A DNA stretch of 11,701 nucleotides from an uncultured bacterium (GTDB taxonomy: Bacteria; Zixibacteria; MSB-5A5; JAABVY01; JAHJOQ01): positions 1 through 11,701 of the forward strand of contig CBDUQR010000064.1 in NCBI GenBank assembly GCA_965369655.1, read 5' to 3'. Each line of letters starts with the position of its first letter. Position 1 is the stretch's first letter. The notes under the pieces are model-generated. The model was not told the DNA's origin and ran no database searches. It worked only from the letters and a program-made list of their open reading frames with translations. A program made the translations under genes and the position numbers. This document shows positions 1-11,483 of the stretch, piece by piece.

Positions 1-325
1 CTTCAACGAGTTCCTTCGGAAGTTTGACCTGCTTGTCGTATTCGCGGCGGATCTCCCTGACATTCGCGGCGGCATCCGACTCGGCATCCTTGATCAGATC
101 GCTTTCCTCGACTGCTGAAAGCAATTCACCGACTTTCTTGTCCGTGAATTTTTCATGGACTAATCCCGACAGCAATGCAACCTGTCGCGAACGGCCCTCG
201 GCTCCGCCACGCGGCATATAGGTTCGTTCATCCCATCCGAGAAGCGACTCGCAGGAACCGAGTATCGCGATCTCGCGGTATGTTGTTATCAACTCGTTGT
301 AAGCCTGCTCGGCTGAAATAGTCAT
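1..325 (-). CDS. M32 family (Taq-type) metallocarboxypeptidase, N-terminal part; runs off the left edge
   Basis: Manual translation from ATG at 325 (AAGGAG upstream): MTISAEQAYNELITTYREIAILGSCESLLGWDERTYMPRGGAEGRSRQVALLSGLVHEKFTDKKVGELL...AANVREIRREYDKQVKLPKELVE, open to base 1. LLGWDxxTYMPxGG and REIRRxYD..KLPxELV are typical of the M32 N-terminus. Not in the ORF track because there is no stop inside the window. Confidence 0.9.
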   Translation of the reverse strand, partial: MTISAEQAYNELITTYREIAILGSCESLLGWDERTYMPRGGAEGRSRQVALLSGLVHEKFTDKKVGELLSAVEESDLIKDAESDAAANVREIRREYDKQVKLPKELVE

Positions 326-356
326 GTGCGGAATCTCCTTAGTTTTGTTTGCAGTA

Positions 357-385
357 GATATAATCTGCAATATGTCTAATGGCAA
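357..385 (-). promoter_or_regulatory. Possible sigma70 promoter for the carboxypeptidase gene
   Basis: Minus strand TTGCCA (385-380), 17-nt spacer, TATATC (362-357), about 30 nt upstream of the ATG. It overlaps a TTGCAG-N10-CTGCAA inverted repeat (349..370). The -10 match is imperfect. Confidence 0.3.
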
Positions 386-508
386 GCGCTTTCGGTTGAT
401 CGGTTTTTCTCCTGCCGTTGTACTCTCGACAGTTTGCGTTGATTGTTGCGTCACCGAGCGGGTTCAAATAACTTGACAAATGCCGATAATTACATTAATT
501 CCGCGATG

Positions 509-525
509 GTTTGACAGTGTCAAAC
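509..525. repeat. Perfect 17-bp palindrome upstream of tRNA-Met
   Basis: GTTTGACA-G-TGTCAAAC, which contains TTGACA on both strands. Confidence 0.8.
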
Positions 526-554
526 TGCCAAGACGCTTCGCGTATAGACATAAT

Positions 555-628
555 GGCGGTGTAGCTCAGCTGGTTAGAGCAGCGGAATCATAATCCGCGT
601 GTCCGGGGTTCAAGTCCCTGCACCGCTA
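555..628 (+). tRNA. tRNA-Met(CAT), elongator type; CCA not encoded
   Basis: Cloverleaf: acceptor GGCGGTG/CACCGCT, D stem GCTC/GAGC, anticodon stem GCGGA/TCCGC with loop ATCATAA (CAT at 589-591), T arm CGGGG-TTCAAGT-CCCTG, discriminator A628. G1 pairs with position 72 and there is no GGG/CCC anticodon stem, so it is not initiator. The sequence resembles elongator Met more than Ile2. Confidence 0.95.
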
Positions 629-631
629 TTT
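611..631 (+). repeat. att core, copy 1 (attL-like, tRNA 3' end)
   Basis: CAAGTCCCTGCACCGCTATTT, identical (21/21) to 7440..7460. Confidence 0.93.
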
Positions 632-939
632 GATGAATTTGCCTGTAATGAAACCACTTATAATATTGCTGTCGCTGTCCATGATGGGCTTGTGATAGAT
701 CTGTGTCCACACGAGATCCCTAGTAACAGACATTACTTCCCCTGACGAGCTGGACTGTCCCGGAAAGGAGAACCCTAAGTACGGAGCCCTTTTCGGGAAT
801 GCAGCAAAAGGATCGATATTATTATCAGTCCCTTGCAGCAATTATGCTGCTTACTATCATTCCAAATCTACTAAAACTCAGTTCAATTTCAAGCCCATTG
901 TGTCTGGATTAAGCTGAAGAAAAACAACAGGGTTTTGTA

Positions 940-967
940 TTGAAAAACGTGCGTAAGCGTGTATCTT
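940..967 (+). promoter_or_regulatory. Putative sigma70 promoter of the cargo operon
   Basis: TTGAAA (940-945), 16-nt spacer, TATCTT (962-967), preceded by A/T tracts. Confidence 0.4.
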
Positions 968-996
968 CCGTTTATTGGTTGGGGAGGATTACAACT

Positions 997-1071
997 ATGT
1001 TCTATTGGATTCCAGGTCCTGTTCCTGCTCATCTGCCGAGAAGGCGACTGAAGTATGTTGCAGACGGTTGA
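997..1071 (+). CDS. Putative 24-aa upstream ORF / leader peptide
   Basis: Strong SD GGGGAGGA (981-988) 8 nt before ATG 997. Encodes MFYWIPGPVPAHLPRRRLKYVADG* and sits between the putative promoter and the barrel gene. Confidence 0.35.
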   Translation: MFYWIPGPVPAHLPRRRLKYVADG

Positions 1072-1118
1072 TAAATACCAGATTTCCGGTAAGCACCGAT
1101 TGGAAGGATAGGAGCGTT

Positions 1119-3065
1119 ATGTTGAAGCGATTGATATTACTATCACTGTTGATGGCCATGTTGTTTCAAAGTTTTGCATCCGGCTCTAGTGTCAACATAT
1201 ACCAACAATTCGACAACCTCTCGCAACAGGTTAACCGATCGCGAGGATTAGCGCTCGCTGTCCTTAAACAGATCAAGCAGATTGACGCCGATTGTTTGAG
1301 TGACGGTGACATCCCTGTTCCGGGCAGGACCGGCGAAGCCAGGAGCCGTCTGGGTGGAGTTAGACTTCTGGTAAGATCTTTTGAAACGATCTCGGATGAT
1401 GCTGAAAAACTCTCGAAGCAACTCGAAAGAGATCTGATGTCGTCGGCATACAGGGCTACACTTGCTGCGGAGTTGACCCCGGGTATCAAAAAACTAAAGA
1501 TAGAAATTGCCAGGTTTCGACAATATGTAAATCAGCATTACAACCGAGCGATCAACAATTACGGTGAACCGATTATTGGAGCACCCCGAGCAGCAGGATT
1601 GGCGCCAGGAAAGAAGCTCTCCATAAGCGGTGAGGTTGCAACCGGTCTTGGTAGTTCCCAGTATAAACGTCCGCATGCCAATCCAGCATTCAAATCATCT
1701 TCGACCGACTTCCTGTTTGGAGTAAAGGGCTTGTTTATCCCTTCCAAAAACACAACGGTACTGATGAATCTGAATCACAAGAAGACTGTCCAGCGAAGAG
1801 AAATTGCGCTGACAAAGCTGGGAGCGTCTGTCGTTCAGAACTTCACTCCAAATTTCACCGGATCAGCAGGTCTCGATTATTCCAGGTATTCGGATAAGAC
1901 AATCGATATCGCCAGCTATGGCGATTTGGGAATGTTCGGACGGGTTGCGTTCCAGAAAAAGGGTATGCGTCTGGATGGCCAGGTTCGGCGCACTTCGCGT
2001 GGTTATTCCGATCTCGATAACGCAGATTACAGCACGACAACATTGTCCGGAGGAGCCACATTGCCCGTAGGATTGGGCAATGTCAAACTGAGAATGAATT
2101 ACCTGTCAAAATCAAATGATATTGATGCGTTGAATCATACTGAGTTCAGCCCAGGCGCGATCTGGCAATTTGTTCCGTGCGGGTCTGAGGTCGGCGTCAA
2201 GTATCAGCAATTCTCTCACCCTGAGGTTGACGACAGCCCTCTCGACAACAATCGAATCAAGGCGCATCTACATCTTGTCAAAAAATCTGGACCCGGTACA
2301 TCGCGATGGGGTCCTGAAGTGATGATCTACAAGTTCCCAAACGATGAAGCGCGAGACTATATCGATTTCAAGCTCTTTCTTCAGTCAAACAAACGAACGA
2401 CCAGCTTCAAGACTTTACGATTGGAAGCGGCGTATCGCATGTATTCTGATACGAGTCAGTATGATTTTGCACAGTTACAGTTTCGGAGCAACAGCCGCCC
2501 GATCGGCTCAGGGTATTACTCCAATCTGAATCTTGCAGCTCGATATTATACAGAATCTTCCAACGATGACGATGCTCTGCGTTTCTCCAACGTTCACCCT
2601 CCCCATACCGTAGATTGCTACTGGAATCTCGGATGGAACTGGATCGGAGGAAGTTGGTTCCAGGGCTTTTCGGCGGGGCCGATCTTTGGCACCAGGGTCT
2701 ATCTCGATACTGAACGATCCGATGCGTTCGACGAAGATCTTATTGATACTGACTTTCTTCTTAGAAACCCACAGAACACAGCTCGTGCTGGTCTGAAAGT
2801 CGGTATTTCCGGGACGAGTTCTCAGACCGTCACATGGAGAACCGATCTGAGTTACGTGTATTCGATTCTTTACAATGCAGACCCGATGCGCACAACTAAC
2901 ATTCTCGAATTGAGCACACGCCTGAATTATCCGATCGACGATAAATGGCTCGTGGAGGGGTATGCGAAAATACACCGAACCCGGGTAGAAATTGAATCCG
3001 TGGCAGACCTTAACAAATCGAATGTTGGAGTGCAAGTCAAGTATCTCTTTGGCACCGGACTGTAA
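1119..3065 (+). CDS. Predicted outer-membrane beta-barrel protein with signal peptide and N-terminal helical domain (648 aa)
   Basis: Start moved from 975 to ATG 1119 (AGGAG SD upstream). MLKRLILLSLLMAMLFQSFASG is a Sec signal peptide. About 140 aa of helical-looking sequence follow, then many amphipathic alternating strands (e.g. GSAGLDYSRY, TLRLEAAYRMY, WLVEGYAKIH). The last strand VGVQVKYLF resembles a beta-signal. Family not recognised. Confidence 0.75.
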   Translation: MLKRLILLSLLMAMLFQSFASGSSVNIYQQFDNLSQQVNRSRGLALAVLKQIKQIDADCLSDGDIPVPGRTGEARSRLGGVRLLVRSFETISDDAEKLSKQLERDLMSSAYRATLAAELTPGIKKLKIEIARFRQYVNQHYNRAINNYGEPIIGAPRAAGLAPGKKLSISGEVATGLGSSQYKRPHANPAFKSSSTDFLFGVKGLFIPSKNTTVLMNLNHKKTVQRREIALTKLGASVVQNFTPNFTGSAGLDYSRYSDKTIDIASYGDLGMFGRVAFQKKGMRLDGQVRRTSRGYSDLDNADYSTTTLSGGATLPVGLGNVKLRMNYLSKSNDIDALNHTEFSPGAIWQFVPCGSEVGVKYQQFSHPEVDDSPLDNNRIKAHLHLVKKSGPGTSRWGPEVMIYKFPNDEARDYIDFKLFLQSNKRTTSFKTLRLEAAYRMYSDTSQYDFAQLQFRSNSRPIGSGYYSNLNLAARYYTESSNDDDALRFSNVHPPHTVDCYWNLGWNWIGGSWFQGFSAGPIFGTRVYLDTERSDAFDEDLIDTDFLLRNPQNTARAGLKVGISGTSSQTVTWRTDLSYVYSILYNADPMRTTNILELSTRLNYPIDDKWLVEGYAKIHRTRVEIESVADLNKSNVGVQVKYLFGTGL

Positions 3066-3091
3066 TCGAAAAATCGGGAGAGGCAAATAAA

Positions 3092-6000
3092 ATGATACAG
3101 ACAAACTGGAATTCTATCACTGTCAGAAAACTGTTATCGGTGACCCTGCTTATTATAGCTCTGATGGCTCCGATGACAACGACATATGGCGACTCCGAGT
3201 ATGATGAGGCTTTGCAGCAAACTGAGGATCAGTGGAATGCTGTTCGCCAAACGATGCAGGAGAGCAAGACCAAGTTCGATACGTTCAAGGATAAGTATCA
3301 GGAATACGAAGATGCTGTGTTCAGCCAGGATGCAGAGCGAGGCATAGAACTGGCTCGCAAGCTGTTCAATCTTGACAAGAGCCAGACAGCAGAAGCGAAA
3401 AAGAAACTCGCATCCCTCCGCGAGATGTTCAATGAACTCGACAAGAGCGGTATCAAGACCAAATTGGAGAAGGCATCCAAGGGACTCGAATTCGCTGACA
3501 ATGTTGCAGGCGAAGTTACGAACGTATGGGAATTCTCCAAGAAGTTCGATCCTAAGCATGCCAAAGACAACCCGACATATGGGCTGAGATTGATCGGGGA
3601 TCTCCTCAAGGAAAGCGCCAGCAAAATGGAGAAAATCCCGCTGGTTGGACAGATACTCGGCAAATGGATCGGAGCTTATGGCGAAGTAGCGGGTGATTTT
3701 GCAAACGCTCTTGACCGACTCGGCAAGAAAATCGATGATTTCAGAGGCGGGTCGCTGTGCGGACAGCTCGGTTACAGAACTGACCAGCAGAGCGCCTTCA
3801 AGTCCGCCTCAGAAAAAGGTGAGAGCTGTCTGACCTATTTCGCAGTTGGCATTTTTCCGCGTATGCGAGGTGAAACCTATGAGGGCAATAACTCATATTT
3901 CCTTTATGATCCGAGCAGCAAGAGAGGATATTTTTCTCCGACCGGCACAACAGAGAAAGTTTATAACTGGCACGAGCGGTTGCTCGACAGAGTTGCTCTC
4001 GATCCTGACTGGCTGGCCAGCAGGTCCAACTCTCTCAAGGCGGAGACAGAGAGCAAAGCACGGGAATACTACGCAAGTTTCTCAGGATGGAAGGACAAGA
4101 CCGACCCAGGCTGGATCATCATAGAAAAATTGGGACTCTATCAGGACGCATATTTCTATGGTCGTCTCGACGAAGACACTTTTGTCGCCAACTATATTCT
4201 GGCCGAGAAACATCATAAGGCCATAGAAGCGATAATGAAGGAATATGAGAAACACGTTCTTATCGCTGGAACCGTGTATGAGACTGAAGAGGATGACAAG
4301 AAGCCATCAGCCGGAGCTCAAGTTGAGTTTACCATCTCCGGAAAAAACTACAAGATGGATACTGATCAGAACGGCCAATACGAGATATTGATGAAAGGCA
4401 AAGTCAACGACGCCATCCACGAAAAGGTTACAAAAGAGGGGTTTGAGCCGATCGAGCATGATGGACACATGATCGAGAGAGCAATTCAGGGGCAAGACTA
4501 CACTCTTCTCAAGAAGGCAATGACCGTTGTAATCAGCGGGACTGTTTACATCAAAGAGAAGAAAGATGAACCAGCGGTGACTGTCGATGGAGCAACCGTT
4601 GCGGCGACCGCGCAAAAGGCAGGGGAACTTGGAAGCGCTACCAGTGCTGGAGATGGTTCCTATCGCTTGACTGTGAAGACAATCGAGGGCGTTACAGTAA
4701 CATGCACCGCTACAAAGGATGCCGCATCCGGTGCCGCAACTGTAACCGTAACAGGCGAAGCTCATTCTGGCGTTGATATAACGCTTTCGAAAACTGGTGA
4801 GGATAAAGACGATGATGATGGACCTTCATGGATCATCAATGTCATAGTATTCGATGACGCAGGCCAGCCATTGCCCGGCGCCATAGTCACATGCACCCAC
4901 GATGTTTCAGCGGTCACGACAGGCGCTGATGGAGCAGCGACAATCGGGCCAATCGAGATACCTGACACATGGCCCGATGAGGCATTCACTGTAACCCTGA
5001 CTCCATCGATTGTTGCCGAGGGAGGCGTGAAAGTCGGCGGCAGTTCTAAAAGTGTATCCTACGAAGGCGAATCTCCGAGTGCGGCGACATTGACTATCCC
5101 CGTTCTGATTCCGCAGTCTGTGACGATCAGCGGGAAAGTTCTCGATGCAAACGGCGTCGGCCTTGGCGGCACAGTTGTAACAGGTGCCGGCCAATCAGCC
5201 ACAACTTCAGGTTCCGGGGCATTTTCAATCGGACCATTCATGATGGTTAAGGATTCTTCAATCGCCCTGATGGCTACACTGAAGGAGGGGTCGCATACAT
5301 TCTCTGGTGGGCCAGTCACAGCAACTTTTGACGGTGCGAACAAGAGCATTTCGGGAGTGGTGATCACTCTCGATATAGAGACAGTGACCGACGTGACAAT
5401 ATCCGGATTAGTGACGGACTTAGACGGCAAGCCAATCGAGGGTGCCGCTGTCACTGGTGGGGGAGGCGCATCCACTACTAATGGCGCCGGCAAGTATACT
5501 CTCCCCGCATTCGAACACAAACTCGGAACATCGGTATCCATCTCGGCTACGATTACGGACATGAACGGAGTCGCGGTAGGCGGGCAGGTCGATGTCAAGC
5601 CGATGAGCGATGCTGCCACAGCTCCGACGATTGTTCTCGATGTTACCCAGGAAGATGTCCATGATGTCACTATTTCCGGGACTGTGATCGACGAGAATGG
5701 CGCCGGTGTCTCTGGCGCGATAGTCACGGCTGGATCAGCATCTACCACGAGCGCAGCATCCGGAGAGTTCTCTCTGCCGCCGATCGAAATGGTCAAAGAC
5801 GAGGTTGTTGCGGTAAGTGCCGCGTATACCGATGGTCAGGACACCTATGCCGGTGGACCCGTCTCGGCGACATTTGATGGCACGAATACATCGATCGGAG
5901 GTATCACGCTTGTTGTGAAGAAAGACAAGACTGCTGCGGTGACTGTATCTGGAACAGTTATCGGTACTGATGGCAATGGGATCGGTGGAGCATCTGTATC

Positions 6001-7165
6001 CGGCGGCGGTCAAACCGCACTGACGGATGGCGCGGGTAGTTTTTCGCTCGGGCCTGTGCAGCATGAACTCGGCACGCCGCTCAGCATATCCGCATCGGTC
6101 ATGAAGGCCGACGGTAGTACTGCGGGCGGAACCGCAAGTGTCACGTCGACTAACGATGTTGCCAGTATTGCCATTGTAATAGACCTTGCTGCCGATGCAA
6201 CCGACGATCTCGATAGTCTCATCAATGACCTTAAAGACGATCTCGATAGCACCGGGATGGATTCCGACGCCATGCTGGCTGGATTCTACGCACTGATTTC
6301 GGATCTGGATGGAATCGCGGGAAAATTCTACTCACAGGCAGACTTCGCCGATCAGCGAATCCGTGAACTGGGACCGGAAGTTTGTATGAGCGGGGATGTA
6401 GCTTCTGCAATCACTGCCGCTGGAACCCAGACCGATATTTATGACTTCACTCTGAGCGCTGTGCCCGGCCTTTATGCTGAACTTATTGTACTACAAGCAA
6501 TCGATCCGACGATTGATCTCTCCACAGCCGATGCTGAATTTGCTCGAGTGGCGGGCCAGATGGAGACGCTCGATGTGAAGTATGCTCAAGTGATTGGAGC
6601 TTACAATTCGTACGAGTGTGATGAGGACGCCGCCGATATGAACTCAGGTGATAAAGCCGAGACTGACGCTGATCCGGATGATGTCGAGTCTGGAGCGGAC
6701 GCAGGAGGCGGAGTCGAGGTCTGTGGCGACGGTATTGACAACGACAAGGATGGTGAAATCGATGAGTGCGACGCCGGATGCTGTGATAAGAATGTACAGG
6801 TGACTGTGAGCGACTGCGGAACCGCAGCCGACGATATTTTCCTTGTGTCAGTCGATGGAGGAGATGTCGGAGTTACTCCCAAGGGAGCAGCCAATACGTT
6901 TAACATAGAGCTTTCTCCCGGCCTCCACACCGTCAGGGTCACATGTCTCGATGACGGTGGAGATCCGCTCGGATCAGACATCGGCACAGCGTGCGTATCG
7001 ATTATAGTCTACGGCACTGATGCGGGCATCGGCGGAGGAGAATTAAGCATTGCATACGGGGGGTCCGATACTGTGTCATTTACAGTTCCGGAGGGACCGG
7101 CAGAGACAACAGTCCAACAGATATTTGATGGCACAACTCTGCAGGGTCTCGAAGGAGGGAACTGA
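3092..7165 (+). CDS. Large secreted multidomain protein (1357 aa): signal peptide, helical N-domain, 7 carboxypeptidase-regulatory-like beta-sandwich repeats, helical linker, MopE-like CxDGxDNDxDGxxDE motif, PEGA-like C-terminal domain
   Basis: SD GGGAGAGG upstream and a hydrophobic N-terminus. Repeats start near 4256, 4526, 4829, 5120, 5393, 5666 and 5939 with consensus VTISGxVxDxxGxPxxGAxV...TxxxGxF/Y. EVCGDGIDNDKDGEIDEC lies near 6716. VSVDGGDVGVTP...IELSPGLHTVRV resembles PEGA. Confidence 0.85.
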   Translation: MIQTNWNSITVRKLLSVTLLIIALMAPMTTTYGDSEYDEALQQTEDQWNAVRQTMQESKTKFDTFKDKYQEYEDAVFSQDAERGIELARKLFNLDKSQTAEAKKKLASLREMFNELDKSGIKTKLEKASKGLEFADNVAGEVTNVWEFSKKFDPKHAKDNPTYGLRLIGDLLKESASKMEKIPLVGQILGKWIGAYGEVAGDFANALDRLGKKIDDFRGGSLCGQLGYRTDQQSAFKSASEKGESCLTYFAVGIFPRMRGETYEGNNSYFLYDPSSKRGYFSPTGTTEKVYNWHERLLDRVALDPDWLASRSNSLKAETESKAREYYASFSGWKDKTDPGWIIIEKLGLYQDAYFYGRLDEDTFVANYILAEKHHKAIEAIMKEYEKHVLIAGTVYETEEDDKKPSAGAQVEFTISGKNYKMDTDQNGQYEILMKGKVNDAIHEKVTKEGFEPIEHDGHMIERAIQGQDYTLLKKAMTVVISGTVYIKEKKDEPAVTVDGATVAATAQKAGELGSATSAGDGSYRLTVKTIEGVTVTCTATKDAASGAATVTVTGEAHSGVDITLSKTGEDKDDDDGPSWIINVIVFDDAGQPLPGAIVTCTHDVSAVTTGADGAATIGPIEIPDTWPDEAFTVTLTPSIVAEGGVKVGGSSKSVSYEGESPSAATLTIPVLIPQSVTISGKVLDANGVGLGGTVVTGAGQSATTSGSGAFSIGPFMMVKDSSIALMATLKEGSHTFSGGPVTATFDGANKSISGVVITLDIETVTDVTISGLVTDLDGKPIEGAAVTGGGGASTTNGAGKYTLPAFEHKLGTSVSISATITDMNGVAVGGQVDVKPMSDAATAPTIVLDVTQEDVHDVTISGTVIDENGAGVSGAIVTAGSASTTSAASGEFSLPPIEMVKDEVVAVSAAYTDGQDTYAGGPVSATFDGTNTSIGGITLVVKKDKTAAVTVSGTVIGTDGNGIGGASVSGGGQTALTDGAGSFSLGPVQHELGTPLSISASVMKADGSTAGGTASVTSTNDVASIAIVIDLAADATDDLDSLINDLKDDLDSTGMDSDAMLAGFYALISDLDGIAGKFYSQADFADQRIRELGPEVCMSGDVASAITAAGTQTDIYDFTLSAVPGLYAELIVLQAIDPTIDLSTADAEFARVAGQMETLDVKYAQVIGAYNSYECDEDAADMNSGDKAETDADPDDVESGADAGGGVEVCGDGIDNDKDGEIDECDAGCCDKNVQVTVSDCGTAADDIFLVSVDGGDVGVTPKGAANTFNIELSPGLHTVRVTCLDDGGDPLGSDIGTACVSIIVYGTDAGIGGGELSIAYGGSDTVSFTVPEGPAETTVQQIFDGTTLQGLEGGN
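5120..6190 (+). repeat. Four intragenic beta-sandwich repeats with an exact 273-nt (91-aa) period, A-B-A-B arrangement
   Basis: VTISGKVLD (5120), VTISGLVTD (5393), VTISGTVID (5666), VTVSGTVIG (5939). Units 1 and 3 share MVKD...GGPVxATFDGxNxSI. Units 2 and 4 share HxLGTxxSISA...GG. Confidence 0.85.
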
Positions 7166-7237
7166 GACAGGCAAAGCGTCAGGTTCTAAGTCTGTAAGGT
7201 TGCGTTACAGTCAATGCTGCTGTAGATCGGTAGAGAT

Positions 7238-7311
7238 CGCGGGGTGGAGTAGTCCGGCAACTCGTTGGGCTAATAACCCGAAGGTCGGTGGTCAATATCC
7301 ATCCGGTGCTC
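7238..7311 (+). pseudogene. Degenerate initiator tRNA-fMet-like sequence with anticodon AAT
   Basis: CGCGGGG TG GAGT AGTCCGGCA ACTC G TTGGG CTAATAA CCCGA AGGTC GGTGG TCAATAT CCATC CGGTGCT C aligns arm by arm with bacterial tRNA-fMet (5' CGCGGGGTGGAG, GGG/CCC anticodon stem, CCCGAAGGTC). The anticodon reads AAT instead of CAT, the T-loop lacks TTC, and the acceptor stem has two G-G mismatches. Confidence 0.85.
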
Positions 7312-7375
7312 TATACCACCAGGTGCCAGTTGTGCTGGAAGAAATTTGACGGTGTTCGCGCGTGTATAGTTGTCA

Positions 7376-9082
7376 TCAAGCTGCTCTTCTTTTTGAAACT
7401 ACGATCACTTCAAACGGGATGGAGACTCCAATAGCGTTGCAAGTCCCTGCACCGCTATTTATAGCTATTGGAAGTCCACTTTCACCAAGCGCATTCAACG
7501 GCATCGCATTGCCGCTTATTCTGAAGACTGTACGGCCATCCTTCTCTTCTGTCTTTACTGTGAGCTTATCCGGAAAGATATTCCTCAAAGTAGCGCGAAA
7601 CACGCTCATCGACTCGGTGTGCCTCTGCAATAGATCGCCCAGACTGGAGAGTTTTTTCTTCACCCATTCGGCGTCGACATTGGTCGGAATCGATTTCCTG
7701 TTGGAAAGACTCGCCAGTTCACGCTTCACAGACTGGAGTCGAGACTCCTTGGCCAGAAGCCTCTCTTTGAGTGATTCTGTGAGATTTCCCTTCTCGGCGA
7801 GATCAAGCAGGTTCTGTACTACAGCGGTCAGGGATTCTTTCTCTTTCTTCAGTTTCGCTTTCATGTTTCGAGGCGTTTGAGCCGTTGCCTTCAGCATCGA
7901 GTTGACATTCTTGGCAAGCAGCTGACACGTCTCCTCGGACAGCAGCAATTCAGACAGCTTTCCGAACACGGCATCCTCGACCGACTTCCTGTTGATGCGA
8001 TGATTACATACGCAGACTGTAGTACCTCTGCTCCAGTATCCATTACAGATGAAGGCCGAGTAGCTCTTCGATGATGTGACAATGTAAGACGATCCACATT
8101 CGGCGCAGACAAGTAAGCCCGATAGCGGGTACTTGCCGTTTGCCGGACGTGAGCGGGATCGTTTGGGCGCATTCTGTGGATTCGACTCGCCGTGAACTGC
8201 ATCCCACAATCGCTGTGGTACAATCCTCAGCGATTTGTCCTTGTGAACGATCCATTTATCCGGCGAGTTATCAATCTTAAGTCTCTTGCCGGTGATATTC
8301 TTCTTGAACCACTTCGTCTTGTTCCATGTCCAGTCGCCGATATACTTCTCTCGATTCAGCATCGATTTAATTGTGCCCGAACACCAATGCCCGCTCCTGC
8401 TGCCGTTGCCGGCGTGAGGTGAAGGGATTCCCTTTGCATTCAATTCATGGGCTATCGCTCTGTAACCCATGCCCAGTTTGCGCATCTCGAACATCTTTCG
8501 AACGACCTCAGCTTCCCTGTCGTTGATCTTTATGTGCACACCATGTCGCCTCGGCCTACCGAACTTGTCTTGTTCTCCACTCTCGAACAAATCAGGAACA
8601 GCGTCATAACCATACACCCGGCCGCCTGCGGAGTAACCACGAGAGACCTGTCCCTTCATTCCACGAACTATCTTAGCCTTGAGATCATCGAGGAAGAGTT
8701 CGTTTGCGATACTCTTGAAGTAGTAAGGAATCTTGGCAGACTGAGACAGCGTTTCGATCCCATCAGATACGGAAGCGATGCCGATCCCGAACATCGTGAG
8801 TTCCTGGAATATATGGATGGATTCTCCGGCATCTCTACCAAGCCGAGATAGATCATCTACGACGACGCAATCAAACAGCCTGTCAAACGCATACTTCTTG
8901 AGATTCACATATCCCGGTCGGTTGACTTCGGCTCCGCTGACTGCCTTATCGGAGTGGATATGATCCTCACATACCTGCCAGCCTTTGTGAGAAATGAACT
9001 GCCTGCATTCCCGAATCTGATCGTCGATAGAGGTCTGCTTCTGCATATCGCTGGAGTACCTGGCGTAGATGGCGCATCTCAT
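7376..9082 (-). CDS. Large serine recombinase / serine integrase (568 aa from ATG 9082)
   Basis: Catalytic YARYSS and DDLSRLGR motifs, a recombinase domain (YGY...EAEVVRKMFE...IAHELN...W...YIG), a zinc ribbon (LSGLLVCAECG...FIC...C) and a coiled coil. ATG 9082 has AAGGTGG upstream and is preferred over GTG 9097. Ends with tandem TGA TGA (7378-7373). Confidence 0.95.
   Translation of the reverse strand: MRCAIYARYSSDMQKQTSIDDQIRECRQFISHKGWQVCEDHIHSDKAVSGAEVNRPGYVNLKKYAFDRLFDCVVVDDLSRLGRDAGESIHIFQELTMFGIGIASVSDGIETLSQSAKIPYYFKSIANELFLDDLKAKIVRGMKGQVSRGYSAGGRVYGYDAVPDLFESGEQDKFGRPRRHGVHIKINDREAEVVRKMFEMRKLGMGYRAIAHELNAKGIPSPHAGNGSRSGHWCSGTIKSMLNREKYIGDWTWNKTKWFKKNITGKRLKIDNSPDKWIVHKDKSLRIVPQRLWDAVHGESNPQNAPKRSRSRPANGKYPLSGLLVCAECGSSYIVTSSKSYSAFICNGYWSRGTTVCVCNHRINRKSVEDAVFGKLSELLLSEETCQLLAKNVNSMLKATAQTPRNMKAKLKKEKESLTAVVQNLLDLAEKGNLTESLKERLLAKESRLQSVKRELASLSNRKSIPTNVDAEWVKKKLSSLGDLLQRHTESMSVFRATLRNIFPDKLTVKTEEKDGRTVFRISGNAMPLNALGESGLPIAINSGAGTCNAIGVSIPFEVIVVSKRRAA
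7430..7460. repeat. attP-like site inside the LSR coding sequence (att core copy 2 plus inverted repeat)
   Basis: AATAGCGTTGCA-AGTCCC-TGCACCGCTATT has 12-bp arms matching 11/12, centred on TC 7444-7445. The equivalent left arm in the tRNA matches only 6/12. An outer inverted repeat TCCAATAGC (7427-7435) / GCTATTGGA (7464-7472) is also present. Confidence 0.85.
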
Positions 9083-9220
9083 ACTACTCGTCACCACCTT
9101 CGATCATGCTCCTGATCTTCTCGGCTTCATCTGTCATGTGAATCCTACAGCTGTTCATAGAATGCCTGCGAGCCTTAATCCTGCCGAGCTTCTGTGACCG
9201 TCCTATGTCTATGCATTCCT

Positions 9221-9358
9221 TTATCTTACGTCTCCTTCAGCTAACACAATGCTCCACATCGCGGCACCTATCAAGAGAATTCCTGCGAAGACCTTGTTTT
9301 TCTTGGGCTGATACACAAACCAATAGCACCATATGTAAAGGCCAGTCAGGAGAGTCAT
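9221..9358 (-). CDS. Possible 45-aa membrane peptide or remnant of a membrane-protein gene
   Basis: MTLLTGLYIWCYWFVYQPKKNKVFAGILLIGAAMWSIVLAEGDVR* has two hydrophobic segments separated by KKNK. There is no clear SD, and an in-frame TAG lies two codons upstream. Confidence 0.3.
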   Translation of the reverse strand: MTLLTGLYIWCYWFVYQPKKNKVFAGILLIGAAMWSIVLAEGDVR

Positions 9359-9451
9359 TGGCTATTGGGCGAGTTTCGAAACGCTGCCGATGAATCGCAG
9401 TATTCATGTTACATCCTCGCCGTCCTGACAGACCCACGACCCGATGAATCT

Positions 9452-9728
9452 GTGAATTTTCACGCCCCAATGTGAAACCTGATCTCCTTGCAGTTCATAG
9501 CGTTACACCTATAATTCACGTTTCACACTTCACACTTACCCTATCCCTAGAATCGGAAATCCAATCGCGGTGCGTAGAGACAAGTTGAAATGGTGAATTT
9601 GTAGTATATATTATATGTATTTATATATACCATAGATTTACTCCCTCCTTGACGTTTCACACCACCCTGTGAAATCTCGTGAAGTTCCGTCATAATCCTA
9701 TGTCCCATAATCTGTTGTAACCCGTGAA
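9452..9728. other. Putative replication origin (iterons flanking an AT-rich palindromic tract)
   Basis: 11 copies of GTGAA/TTCAC (9452, 9459, 9472, 9515, 9522, 9529, 9593, 9656, 9669, 9679, 9724), a direct repeat ACGTTTCACAC (9518, 9652), and the AT tract GTATATATTATATGTATTTATATATAC (9604-9630). It lies immediately downstream of, and slightly overlaps, the DUF3987 gene. Confidence 0.65.
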
Positions 9729-10924
9729 TTTTGTGGATGGAAGTGAGTAGCTTTCTTCTTGCTGTCCACTCGAATATCTTCCCGATCAACAAGGGTTGCC
9801 ACAGCATCATCGAGTCTCATCTTGCCGTGTCTGAATTTCCGCAGAAGCGAAGAACGATCAATGCCAGGTTCCTGTTTAATGATCTTCAGAGCTTTCTGCA
9901 CATCCCGTTCTTCTTGGCTGAAGACAAGCCCCGTATCCAGCAGACAACGAATGTTCACGCGCAGCATTTCCACTAAGTCACGAGCCATTTTCATGTTGTG
10001 TACTTGAATTTCGCAGGAGTGATCTTCAGAAATCTGATACAACATTGCGAATTTCAATAGATACGTTTCGAGTCGCGACAAGAACGGTGCTATACGTTCG
10101 AAATCCTGTTCCTTCTCGGTTGCTGTCTTGTGCTGCGTGTACCAATCCTCGTACATTTCCTTTGCTTCTTGCGAGAGTGTTACTTCGCCTTCAACACGAG
10201 AAATCTGCTCTAACTGCGAGACAAGTTCAGATTGGACAGCTGGATCAGGGACAGGCGGAATCGGCAATAACTTTGACGGCTCTGTTCCGCTGACATAGAC
10301 GAACCGTGCCAGAAAGCCCGACATGATGTCGTCTTCACGCAGCTTCGAATTGAGCCATGCGACTGTAGAGGCAGAGAGGATAGAGATACAGGGATTCTCT
10401 ATGGTGATGATGTCCTTCTTCAGATGACGTGTATGTCGTTGCGGACAGTCATACAGATCAGTCAACATCTCCTTGGTCCCGATCATATAGCTACGGTTGA
10501 ATTGTTCAAGCACACCGCCAAATTCAGACCAACAAAACAATCCTTGAGGACGCTCTTGCAGCAGTTCGAGCAGAGCTTCACTGGAGAATTCGTTTGGATA
10601 GACGTAGTCGTTCTCAAGCTTCCACAGCAGCGACCTGCCCATGTTGACCGCTGTTGTCTTGCGGCAGCGTGACGAGGGCGCAACGAGTAGAATCCAAATA
10701 TTCGGATAGATCACCTGAGGACCAAGTCTGAAGAAGACATTCCTGCTGCACACTGCAGCCGCCAGAGCGAATGCAACAAACAGATGAAACGATTCAGGTG
10801 CCTCAGTAAGAGGACAGGCATAGCTGTAGTAGTCCTTGATGAATCCCTTTTCCGGGATCACCAGATCGGTTCGTGCACACGTCTCCCTTGCATAGATATC
10901 ACTGATCGCTGCGTTGTTAGACAT
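9698..10924 (-). CDS. DUF3987/YfjI-like P-loop helicase-like replication protein with a likely C-terminal winged helix (408 aa)
   Basis: Motifs EAPESF, YPNIWILLVAPSSRCRKTT (P-loop-like), SSEALLELL, SEFGGVL, LTDLYD, IENPCISILSAST and GFLARF. ATG 10924 is preferred over 10933 because it has an AGGGGA SD and overlaps the upstream gene's TAA (ATGTCTAA). Confidence 0.85.
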   Translation of the reverse strand: MSNNAAISDIYARETCARTDLVIPEKGFIKDYYSYACPLTEAPESFHLFVAFALAAAVCSRNVFFRLGPQVIYPNIWILLVAPSSRCRKTTAVNMGRSLLWKLENDYVYPNEFSSEALLELLQERPQGLFCWSEFGGVLEQFNRSYMIGTKEMLTDLYDCPQRHTRHLKKDIITIENPCISILSASTVAWLNSKLREDDIMSGFLARFVYVSGTEPSKLLPIPPVPDPAVQSELVSQLEQISRVEGEVTLSQEAKEMYEDWYTQHKTATEKEQDFERIAPFLSRLETYLLKFAMLYQISEDHSCEIQVHNMKMARDLVEMLRVNIRCLLDTGLVFSQEERDVQKALKIIKQEPGIDRSSLLRKFRHGKMRLDDAVATLVDREDIRVDSKKKATHFHPQNSRVTTDYGT

Positions 10925-11483
10925 TGCGATCATCCCCTGCTGCGAAACTGAGGTGCTTAATCTTATAATTCAGCAGTACCAATTCGAAGTCTGTTTCGTA
11001 CAGCCACCATTCCAGTTTCTGCTCCCAGGCGTAATAGCAGCTCAAGCCAATCACTCCTTTCTCCAGCCGATTGGTCAAACGAATCAACTGCTCAGTGAGT
11101 AGCTCTGATAACTGCTACACTTCACGGAATCTGCTCTTCAGACAGGATAATTCAATGGGTTCCCATTTCGGAGTTCTGCCGATTCTGGGCGGCTGGCGTA
11201 CGGACGTTGAACGAGGTACAGACCTCGTTGATTGGAAGTTACTTCCAAGATACCCCAGGACCCCCCTGAAATCCGTGTTCAGCAAATGTTTGAGCAGAGT
11301 GATCGTGTTGCCACTGCAACCACGCGTATGGCAGTAGAAAACCTGATCCGTAAACGAGAATGCTGTAGGGTTATCACCCCCGTGAATTGGACAAGCACAA
11401 CGATTTCGTCTGTGCGGTATGCCGAATCTATCCAGAATATCAGCGATCGAGAGTTGATTAGTCAGTCCGATCTGGTTCAGCAT
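10917..11483 (-). pseudogene. CHC2 zinc-finger (primase Zn-binding domain) protein interrupted by one in-frame TAG at 11117-11115
   Basis: CPIHGGDNPTAFSF...FYCHTRGCSGNTITLL is a zf-CHC2 motif. After the TAG the frame stays open for 65 codons (QLSELLTEQLIRLTNRLEKG...KHLSFAAGDDRNV) to TAA 10919-10917, which overlaps the DUF3987 start. The full length would be 188 aa. Confidence 0.75.

Follow-up and report, generated by a model that had tools for sequence, protein, structure and literature searches.

The large serine recombinase (LSR) gene on a contig from an uncultured bacterium of the phylum Zixibacteria (GenBank assembly GCA_965369655.1, contig CBDUQR010000064.1) probably carries its own phage-type attachment site (attP) within its last codons. 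In the same explanation, the contig most likely records a junction inside a composite island, and the short C-terminal tail encoded beyond the attachment site may be a functional appendage of the enzyme. The analysed DNA, called the window hereafter, is the entire 11.7-kb contig (11,701 nt, here C64) of a metagenome-assembled genome of 100 contigs and 2.99 Mb. Genomes, contigs, recombinase loci and proteins from our collections are designated below by G, C, L and P numbers, respectively.

The sole 21-nt direct repeat of the window with 100% identity (family D3) joins positions 611-631 to positions 7440-7460, both on the plus strand. The number of such pairs expected by chance in 11.7 kb was ~1e-5 by simple arithmetic. 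The first copy is made of the last 18 nt of a tRNA-Met(CAT) gene plus 3 nt. This gene (554-629, plus strand) is intact according to ARAGORN and Rfam (RF00005, 64.2 bits), and its arrangement of B arm and core is that of an attB-type left half. The second copy is located within the LSR gene (7376-9097, minus strand), an open reading frame (ORF) of 573 aa from a GTG at 9097, or of 568 aa from an ATG at 9082, that would correspond to the full-length, attP-type form. Read on the minus strand, 7440-7460 encodes N-S-G-A-G-T. Such a block of identity common to the integrase ORF and its tRNA target is the mark of integrases whose genes span attP.

Beyond NSGAGT the LSR frame continues as CNAIGVSIPFEVIVVSKRRAA and ends with TGA at 7376-7378, followed by a second TGA at 7373-7375. 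By translation, this P arm (7373-7441, minus strand) accounts for the tail of 21 residues (7379-7441) as well as for both stop codons (7373-7378). A single base is decisive: the g at 7439 gives TGC (Cys), whereas the t at 610, within the T-loop of the tRNA, gives TGA, and a stop supplied in this way by the antisense T-loop would generate a 547-aa form. An earlier note, made from the letters of the window, had proposed that the core encodes NSGAGT on the minus strand, that the present frame runs 21 residues past it to a TGA TGA, and that joining to the tRNA copy would yield 547 aa instead of 568 aa. Sequence and translation agreed with the first two statements, and the third was borne out by t610 and by the existence of 547-aa homologues (see below).

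Alignments to the tRNA-side junctions of relatives all ended exactly at 7440. The core is moreover flanked by an attP-like imperfect inverted repeat, read from the sequence (7428-7471), with CCAATAGC at 7428-7435 and GCTATTGG at 7464-7471. Both motifs are symmetric about ~7449/7450, and it is near this centre that we infer the crossover. The GCTATTGG motif was kept in the right-hand (P') arms of G200, G198 and G201 as well as at a further site on contig C16 of the window's genome, and no such motif was seen in the P and P' arms that belong to relatives such as G011.

Long and short forms both occurred among relatives. Within the best 120 database homologues, the tail was present in P0002 (98% identical) and in P0006 (56%), the C-terminus of the latter being CSTFGFFIPFEVTVTSKRGAA. 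P0003 (92%, 547 aa), P0005 (86%, 547 aa) and P0004 (85%, 550 aa) stopped exactly after NSGAGT, and P0009, P0012, P0015 and P0019 read on as ...SGAGTRTPDTRIMIPLL, which corresponds to antisense tRNA-Met devoid of the T-loop stop. A survey of 285 genomes of the phylum recovered a homologue at E <=1e-30 in 38 of them, and 29 distinct LSR loci were examined. The ORF ended within an antisense tRNA gene at 21 of these 29 loci (13 Met, 4 Glu, 2 Thr and 2 His). At the others, a tRNA-His was found 5 nt downstream (one locus), the locus was cut by a contig end (three) or masked (one), or no full tRNA was present (three). At two of these last three, L007 (G124:C42) and L019 (G072:C1, ~279.7 kb), the LSR adjoined a ~30-nt 3' fragment of tRNA-Met rather than a whole tRNA. 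On the left of the presumed centre ~20 nt were retained in this fragment, which reflects either insertion into a fragment displaced by another island or decay of the tRNA.

The missing codons were recovered at the other end of the elements. A search for a second core in 10 genomes detected, in 8 of them, another copy of the tRNA core that continued in the LSR frame for 21-31 codons. This far-end tail was on the same contig as the LSR in G011 (31.7 kb away, CNLADTTIPLQLRIEIKPKRRCA), in G089 (14 kb, KVILEIPIEFNIMSDGKRRKQTG), in the tRNA-Thr element of G004 (14 kb, AHINALSIPLSIKIVSKRRIA) and in G012 (22 kb). In G006, G107, G098 and G200 it was on other contigs. The far ends of G013 and G151 were not found on contigs that stop 8.3 and 4.9 kb past the LSR, respectively. 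Integrated copies with an altered C-terminus are thus matched by the lost codons at the opposite end of the element. Since attP lies inside the gene, both forms exist and the tail is found separated in relatives, integration would swap the C-terminus of the LSR. This is the pattern that the earlier note had suggested looking for, namely homologues that abut tRNA-Met and end at NSGAGT (P0003 to P0005) with a tail at the far end (8 of 10 genomes). Its wider proposal, a long form when attP is intact and a short one upon integration, held in so far as both forms and the detached tail occur in nature, but not for the window itself, where the long form is chromosomal (see below).

More distant LSRs were examined on viral contigs. 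Of 80 such loci, 13 overlapped a tRNA, 29 were at a contig end and 38 were neither. Among those of the 38 that were checked, several bore other tails after the same ...VAGAGF junction, for example ...KKRYRVA.

These arrangements are consistent with the following scheme. The body of the gene forms the P' arm, to the right of the core, and the P arm, to its left, encodes the 21-residue tail. Upon recombination with the tRNA gene, codons 1-547 would stay at the tRNA junction and be closed by the stop of the antisense T-loop, whereas the tail codons would be carried to the far end of the element; excision would then rejoin the tail codons to the LSR. In the window, the LSR would most likely have kept, or regained, its tail within the chromosome through the P arm of a neighbouring 6.8-kb unit that has no recombinase, and the outer right end of the island may correspond to a third core copy, located on C16.

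The core indeed occurred three times in this genome: as tRNA-core-X at 611, X being the right arm of the tRNA-proximal site, as tail-core-LSR at 7440, and as a tail-core on C16 (5411-5468). The C16 site was without an LSR body, and genes of host type, for LysE and an aldehyde dehydrogenase, were present to its right. In the window, the intact tRNA-Met with the same core is located 6.8 kb upstream of the 7440 site. The DNA between both cores (632-7439, plus strand), referred to as unit E1, spans 6.8 kb, ends in the tail-coding P arm and displayed no recombinase among its genes (ORFs and Pfam, 632-7439). The LSR belongs to the next unit, E2.

The continuity of this arrangement was assessed with Logan contigs from four public runs, three of which, from one study, cover the region; run X1 is possibly the source sample. 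A 6853-nt contig spanned 602-7454 with 0 mismatches, and a 1701-nt contig from a second sample spanned 6999-8699. Depths in run X1 were 10.5 for the host flank, 9.9 for E1 and 9.25 for E2. With both junctions bridged and a single-copy depth, the full-length LSR of the window is no free attP. The earlier note had linked the long form to an intact attP and the short form to integration; this part of it was amended in view of the contiguity with the chromosome, the depth and the intact tRNA-Met 6.8 kb upstream. An episomal element with a free attP could also have been joined to the chromosome by the assembly, through the repeat. The window is, after all, one complete contig of 11.7 kb out of the 100 that make up this metagenome-assembled genome, and the tRNA body is common to many organisms in the samples (bin depth 77-159). 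Yet the exact repeat measures merely 21 nt, contigs bridge 602-7454 and 6999-8699, and depth is equal over host flank, E1 and E2, which makes such an artefact highly improbable. Most likely, a composite island occupies this tRNA-Met and the 7440 site is one of its internal junctions, of the P-core-P' type. As the tail can also come from the P arm of an adjacent unit, the equation of integrated with short is not a strict one.

Unit E1 appears to be accessory DNA. Its first large ORF (ORF696, 696 aa, 975-3065, plus strand) could not be assigned to any family, since Pfam and PHROGs returned no match, and no relative was recorded when the order's 11 other genomes, and more widely genome contigs, were searched. 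It is this absence of relatives that designates the 6.8 kb as accessory. A blastn search with 632-975 against the genomes and loci collected here returned two weak matches only, and GC content (0.46-0.55) did not set apart E1, E2 and the host flank. The 6.8 kb might instead be resident DNA which the LSR could delete in the manner of programmed excision, the tRNA-Met then being an unoccupied attB. The segment is bounded by direct repeats, and X starts with TTTGAT, somewhat like the TTAGAT flank of the LSR-free relative G199. We consider this very unlikely, as ORF696 is found in none of 11 further genomes of the order, known excision elements carry their recombinase inside the excised segment, and the sister species G201 displays a different order. 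In G201 the synteny of the M32 carboxypeptidase and tRNA-Met genes was kept (78% nucleotide identity over window 20-631), but the tRNA was followed by an LSR relic (L040, G201:C69, 600-720) limited to the last ~36 codons, 57% identical and ending in NSGAGT-stop. Beyond it came a homologue of contig C39, not of C16. The relic at this same locus indicates that this tRNA is a recurrent target.

A further reading holds that the window belongs to a single element with two direct attP copies, which would integrate through the spare tail-core (that of C16, joined to X in the circle) and thereby keep its LSR at full length when integrated. Of the two tail-core modules, 58 nt of the 7373-7441 tail-arm region are 98% identical to C16:5411-5468, and each module has an initiator-tRNA-like piece upstream. 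This reading is nevertheless unlikely, since G011 and G089 (scanned end to end) and G004 (in part) displayed just two end copies without any spare, and X lacks the P' motif. The order found in the window could have arisen by several possible routes: two circles forming a co-integrate, homologous recombination between copies of the shared 60-100-nt P-arm module, or a two-attP element. Repeated tail-core sites occurred elsewhere, as contig C52 of G200 contains an array of three, of which one adjoins a fragment of an LSR. The 3' end of tRNA-Met was also present three times within 4.3 kb at L080 (G035:C2:778957-783298) and within 13.4 kb at L072 (G159:C1); the left arms of these copies were not tail-like, and they look like tandem remnants that other element families left at the same tRNA.

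Several points weigh against the composite-island interpretation. The right arm X displayed no GCTATTGG motif (4 of 8 positions by eye), which does not account for the arrival of E1 between tRNA and LSR. With canonical LSRs, neither attL nor attR serves as a partner for attP. The outer right end of the island depends on an inferred continuation of C64, at its right end, into C16, and a tblastx comparison of the window's genome with the flanks from G199 and G200 gave nothing usable for the right-hand host flank. Finally, the recombination proposed at these sites is a reading of the sequences. No Logan contig of the four runs joined the tRNA to the LSR body (611 to 7440), although such contigs drop rare variants and do not address activity; the only long joint among those listed, 617 to 7291 (side 21), looks like the tRNA of another organism. 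In run X1, positions 7461-7462 carried two other letters in 8.6 of a depth of 18.3, matching the P' arm of G198, and a sibling element probably coexists in that sample.

Composite islands built by LSRs are familiar from SCCmec and from ccr-less pseudo-SCC elements at rlmH, where tandem units, some of them recombinase-less, are bounded by repeats of the 3' end of the target. Their recombinase subfamily and target differ from those of the window, and we know of no gene-end swapping in SCCmec.

The tail itself displayed a recurrent plan. Most commonly, a hydrophobic strand usually starting with IP is followed by a basic cluster and often by a terminal Ala, most ends being of the form KRR-x-A. By our own count, ~11 of 14 tails contained the IP-x-hydrophobic strand, 12 the basic cluster and 9 the terminal Ala, and the motif extended to the tRNA-Thr-targeting relative. 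Between the window and C16 copies nine codons differ, seven by synonymous and two by replacement changes, and all five codons of the KRRAA end differ at the DNA level. A Nei-Gojobori-type count restricted to tail codons 6-21 gave proportions of synonymous (pS) and nonsynonymous (pN) differences of 0.62 and 0.09 against the C16 copy, and of 0.72 and 0.37 and 0.88 and 0.24 against the two G200 copies, one of which has an internal stop. These comparisons indicate that the tail is under protein-level constraint in the subfamily of the window, few positions being held across the family.

The overlap of site and gene end could also be real and the tail a mere by-product, its P arm being kept as protein-binding DNA and both isoforms behaving alike. 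The first 5-6 tail codons are at most ~25 nt from the symmetry centre, so that part of their conservation may be exerted at the DNA level. The G011-G006 pair displayed a pS of 0.18 and a pN of 0.33, which is not purifying, the tails of G012 and G098 are variable and fit the motif poorly, and the stretch linking tail and body is predicted to be disordered. On the other hand, the seven synonymous against two replacement changes between window and C16 are mostly beyond the half-site, the motif recurs in enzymes of 41-56% identity and with a different tRNA target, and a strand is predicted within the tail. A by-product therefore appears possible but doubtful, and a functional tail is preferred here.

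The window enzyme is a bona fide LSR. Pfam recognised the Resolvase (residues 9-154, E 3e-21), Recombinase and Zn_ribbon_recom domains in its ORF. In an alignment of 75 sequences, R13 and S15 of the catalytic Arg/Ser motif were conserved in at least 90%, and the zinc-ribbon cysteines C331, C334, C351 and C362 were invariant. The AlphaFold2 model had a mean per-residue confidence score (predicted local distance difference test, pLDDT) of 85 and displayed long helices at 388-435 and 441-466, forming an inserted coiled coil. Its best Foldseek matches were the integrases of SPbeta, Bxb1 and PhiC31 (E 1e-17 to 1e-19), and the family profile was colinear with the SPbeta integrase from residue 186 to ~520. 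Differences between P0002 and P0001 were almost confined to residues ~395-425, where the predicted coiled coil begins (helix 388-435), and may represent a local recombination patch or a compensated frameshift.

The C-terminal part of the model consists of two helices (476-507) and a beta-hairpin (512-531). Residues 539-555, including the core-encoded SGAGT, had pLDDT values below 50. A strand followed at 560-567, in a block with a mean pLDDT of 81, although only 3 of the 75 rows of the AlphaFold2 alignment carry the tail, so that the strand prediction has a thin basis. According to this model, the tRNA-constrained codons would correspond to a linker, and the terminal hairpin would gain one more strand from the tail. 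The tail would then be an appendage of the second DNA-binding domain, with a core-encoded flexible linker, a docking beta-strand (IPFEVIVV) and an exposed, basic, Ala-ended tip. The long form ends in KRRAA, its last three residues having pLDDT values below 50, and one may conjecture that such a basic, Ala-ended, disordered tip would suit a degradation tag. Such an end would resemble ClpX recognition motifs.

The remaining features of the window frame this junction. On the left, the host flank contains an M32 carboxypeptidase gene, represented by its 5' part (2-454, minus strand; Pfam Peptidase_M32, E 9e-17). Within E1, ORF696 is followed by an ORF of 1357 aa (3092-7165, plus strand) with three CarboxypepD_reg repeats and a CooC_C-like stretch (Pfam). 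Both ORFs resemble cargo. A decayed initiator-tRNA-like sequence with AAT at the anticodon position (7239-7310, plus strand; Rfam tRNA, 29.4 bits at 7244-7304) lies ~70 nt past the LSR stop. With the corresponding tRNA of this genome, on contig C46, it shares 83% identity, and a 24-nt piece of it was also found at C16:5277-5300, equally far from the tail arm. The tRNA genes in which further LSRs of the clade (L024, L026 and L027) reside match this sequence.

To the right of the LSR, two small ORFs (9237-9470 and 9547-9810, minus strand) are followed by a DUF3987/primase-helicase gene, the replication gene of E2 (9698-10933, minus strand; Pfam DUF3987, E 2e-20; PHROGs DNA primase, E 3e-37), and by a CHC2 primase zinc-finger gene (11115-11483, minus strand; Pfam Zn_ribbon_DnaG below cut-off; PHROGs primase families). 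Unit E2 continues past the contig end. The two small ORFs displayed no Pfam or PHROGs match, in line with the earlier remark that no recombination directionality factor (RDF) is recognisable in the window, but RDFs are too diverse for absence to follow from this. The 185 nt upstream of the LSR start (9098-9282) were 98.9% identical to positions 1810-1994 of L087 (G200:C76), from another genus, whereas the LSR coding region was only ~85% identical to that locus. This looks like a mosaic, suggestive of a recent exchange of the promoter-proximal segment.

In streptococcal integrative and conjugative elements (ICEs) inserted in rumA, the att site lies inside the gene of the serine integrase, and excised and integrated integrases differ in length and C-terminus (Ambroset et al. 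2016, PMC4701971). Because of this precedent, an attP inside the gene is not a new layout for serine integrases. Those ICEs target a protein gene in Firmicutes hosts, whereas the window LSR targets a tRNA, and neither a conserved tail motif nor a read-out of antisense tRNA, nor any functional test, is described in the available portion of that article (PMC4701971). Genes that cross attP are well established for the tyrosine integrases of phage Mx8 and of SSV (PMC4383910), both of which the earlier note had named. In the Myxococcus phage Mx8, attP is inside the integrase gene intP, and integration replaces the C-terminus by one that renders the enzyme less active (PMC4701971, PMC4383910). IntP is a tyrosine recombinase that exchanges 112 residues for 13, whereas here 21 residues disappear or give way to 0-12 tRNA-derived ones. 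The genes of SSV-type archaeal integrases extend over attP and target tRNAs (PMC4383910). These enzymes are likewise tyrosine recombinases, in contrast to the serine recombinase of the window. Their gene is split by integration, rather than clipped at its end.

Two other systems bear on what the swap may achieve. In mycobacteriophage BPs, attP is in the repressor gene and integration removes a C-terminal ssrA-like degradation tag, so that the integration state can be read from the stability of the gene product; a C-terminal degradation signal is also present in the BPs integrase (PMC4557955). There, it is the repressor gene that is clipped, and BPs integrates by a tyrosine recombinase, whereas in the window the serine integrase itself would be clipped. 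The SPbeta integrase SprA/YokA (PDB 9dxd, 9dxh and 9y66) was the best match to the window LSR in both sequence and fold. Both share the order of domains, including the part of the second DNA-binding domain that follows the coiled coil, but they are only 18-19% identical, and SPbeta uses a separate RDF, SprB. The SPbeta attP is not known to lie inside the integrase gene. The target of SPbeta is spsM (PMC5499854). The C-terminus of the SPbeta integrase contacts the RDF and is repositioned on binding, and has been described as belonging to a "molecular toggle switch" that governs directionality (10.1101/2025.01.03.631226, with reference to Abe et al. 2021).

By analogy, the long and short forms of the window LSR would differ in stability or in preferred reaction direction. 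This functional difference, put forward as a hypothesis, is made plausible by the SPbeta C-terminal toggle and by the degradation tag that BPs loses upon integration, with indirect support from the purifying selection on part of the tail and from the predicted docking strand. A degron role for the KRRAA end is likewise a hypothesis. A bolder version would make the tail a built-in direction or stability switch that reads the integration state without a separate RDF. The long form would integrate and be short-lived, the short form would maintain or excise the element, and recombinase-less cassettes bearing just a tail-coding P arm, such as E1, would re-arm an integrated integrase by restoring its tail, resulting in integron-like stacking of cargo at tRNA-Met. 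We regard this full version as distinctly unlikely.

What appears to be new here, judging from the sequences compared, is a large branch of tRNA-targeting serine integrases with a conserved tail that is swapped by recombination. No description of such a clade or of the conserved tail was found in the literature searched, although the supplementary tables of Integrase-On-Demand / TIGER (PMC12884075) could list some members. A reference paper from 2015 stated that no use of tRNA genes by serine integrases was known. This statement is revised by the present clade, whose targets, within a single phylum and on viral contigs, include tRNA-Met, -Thr, -Glu and -His. The composite island adds that integration need not clip the enzyme where a neighbouring unit can supply the tail. 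Large serine integrases are valued for genome engineering because of their one-way reaction, and what fixes its direction is under active structural study. A clade that exchanges its own C-terminus through the reaction it catalyses would offer a natural test of any influence that the final part of the second DNA-binding domain has on the direction of the reaction or the lifetime of the enzyme.

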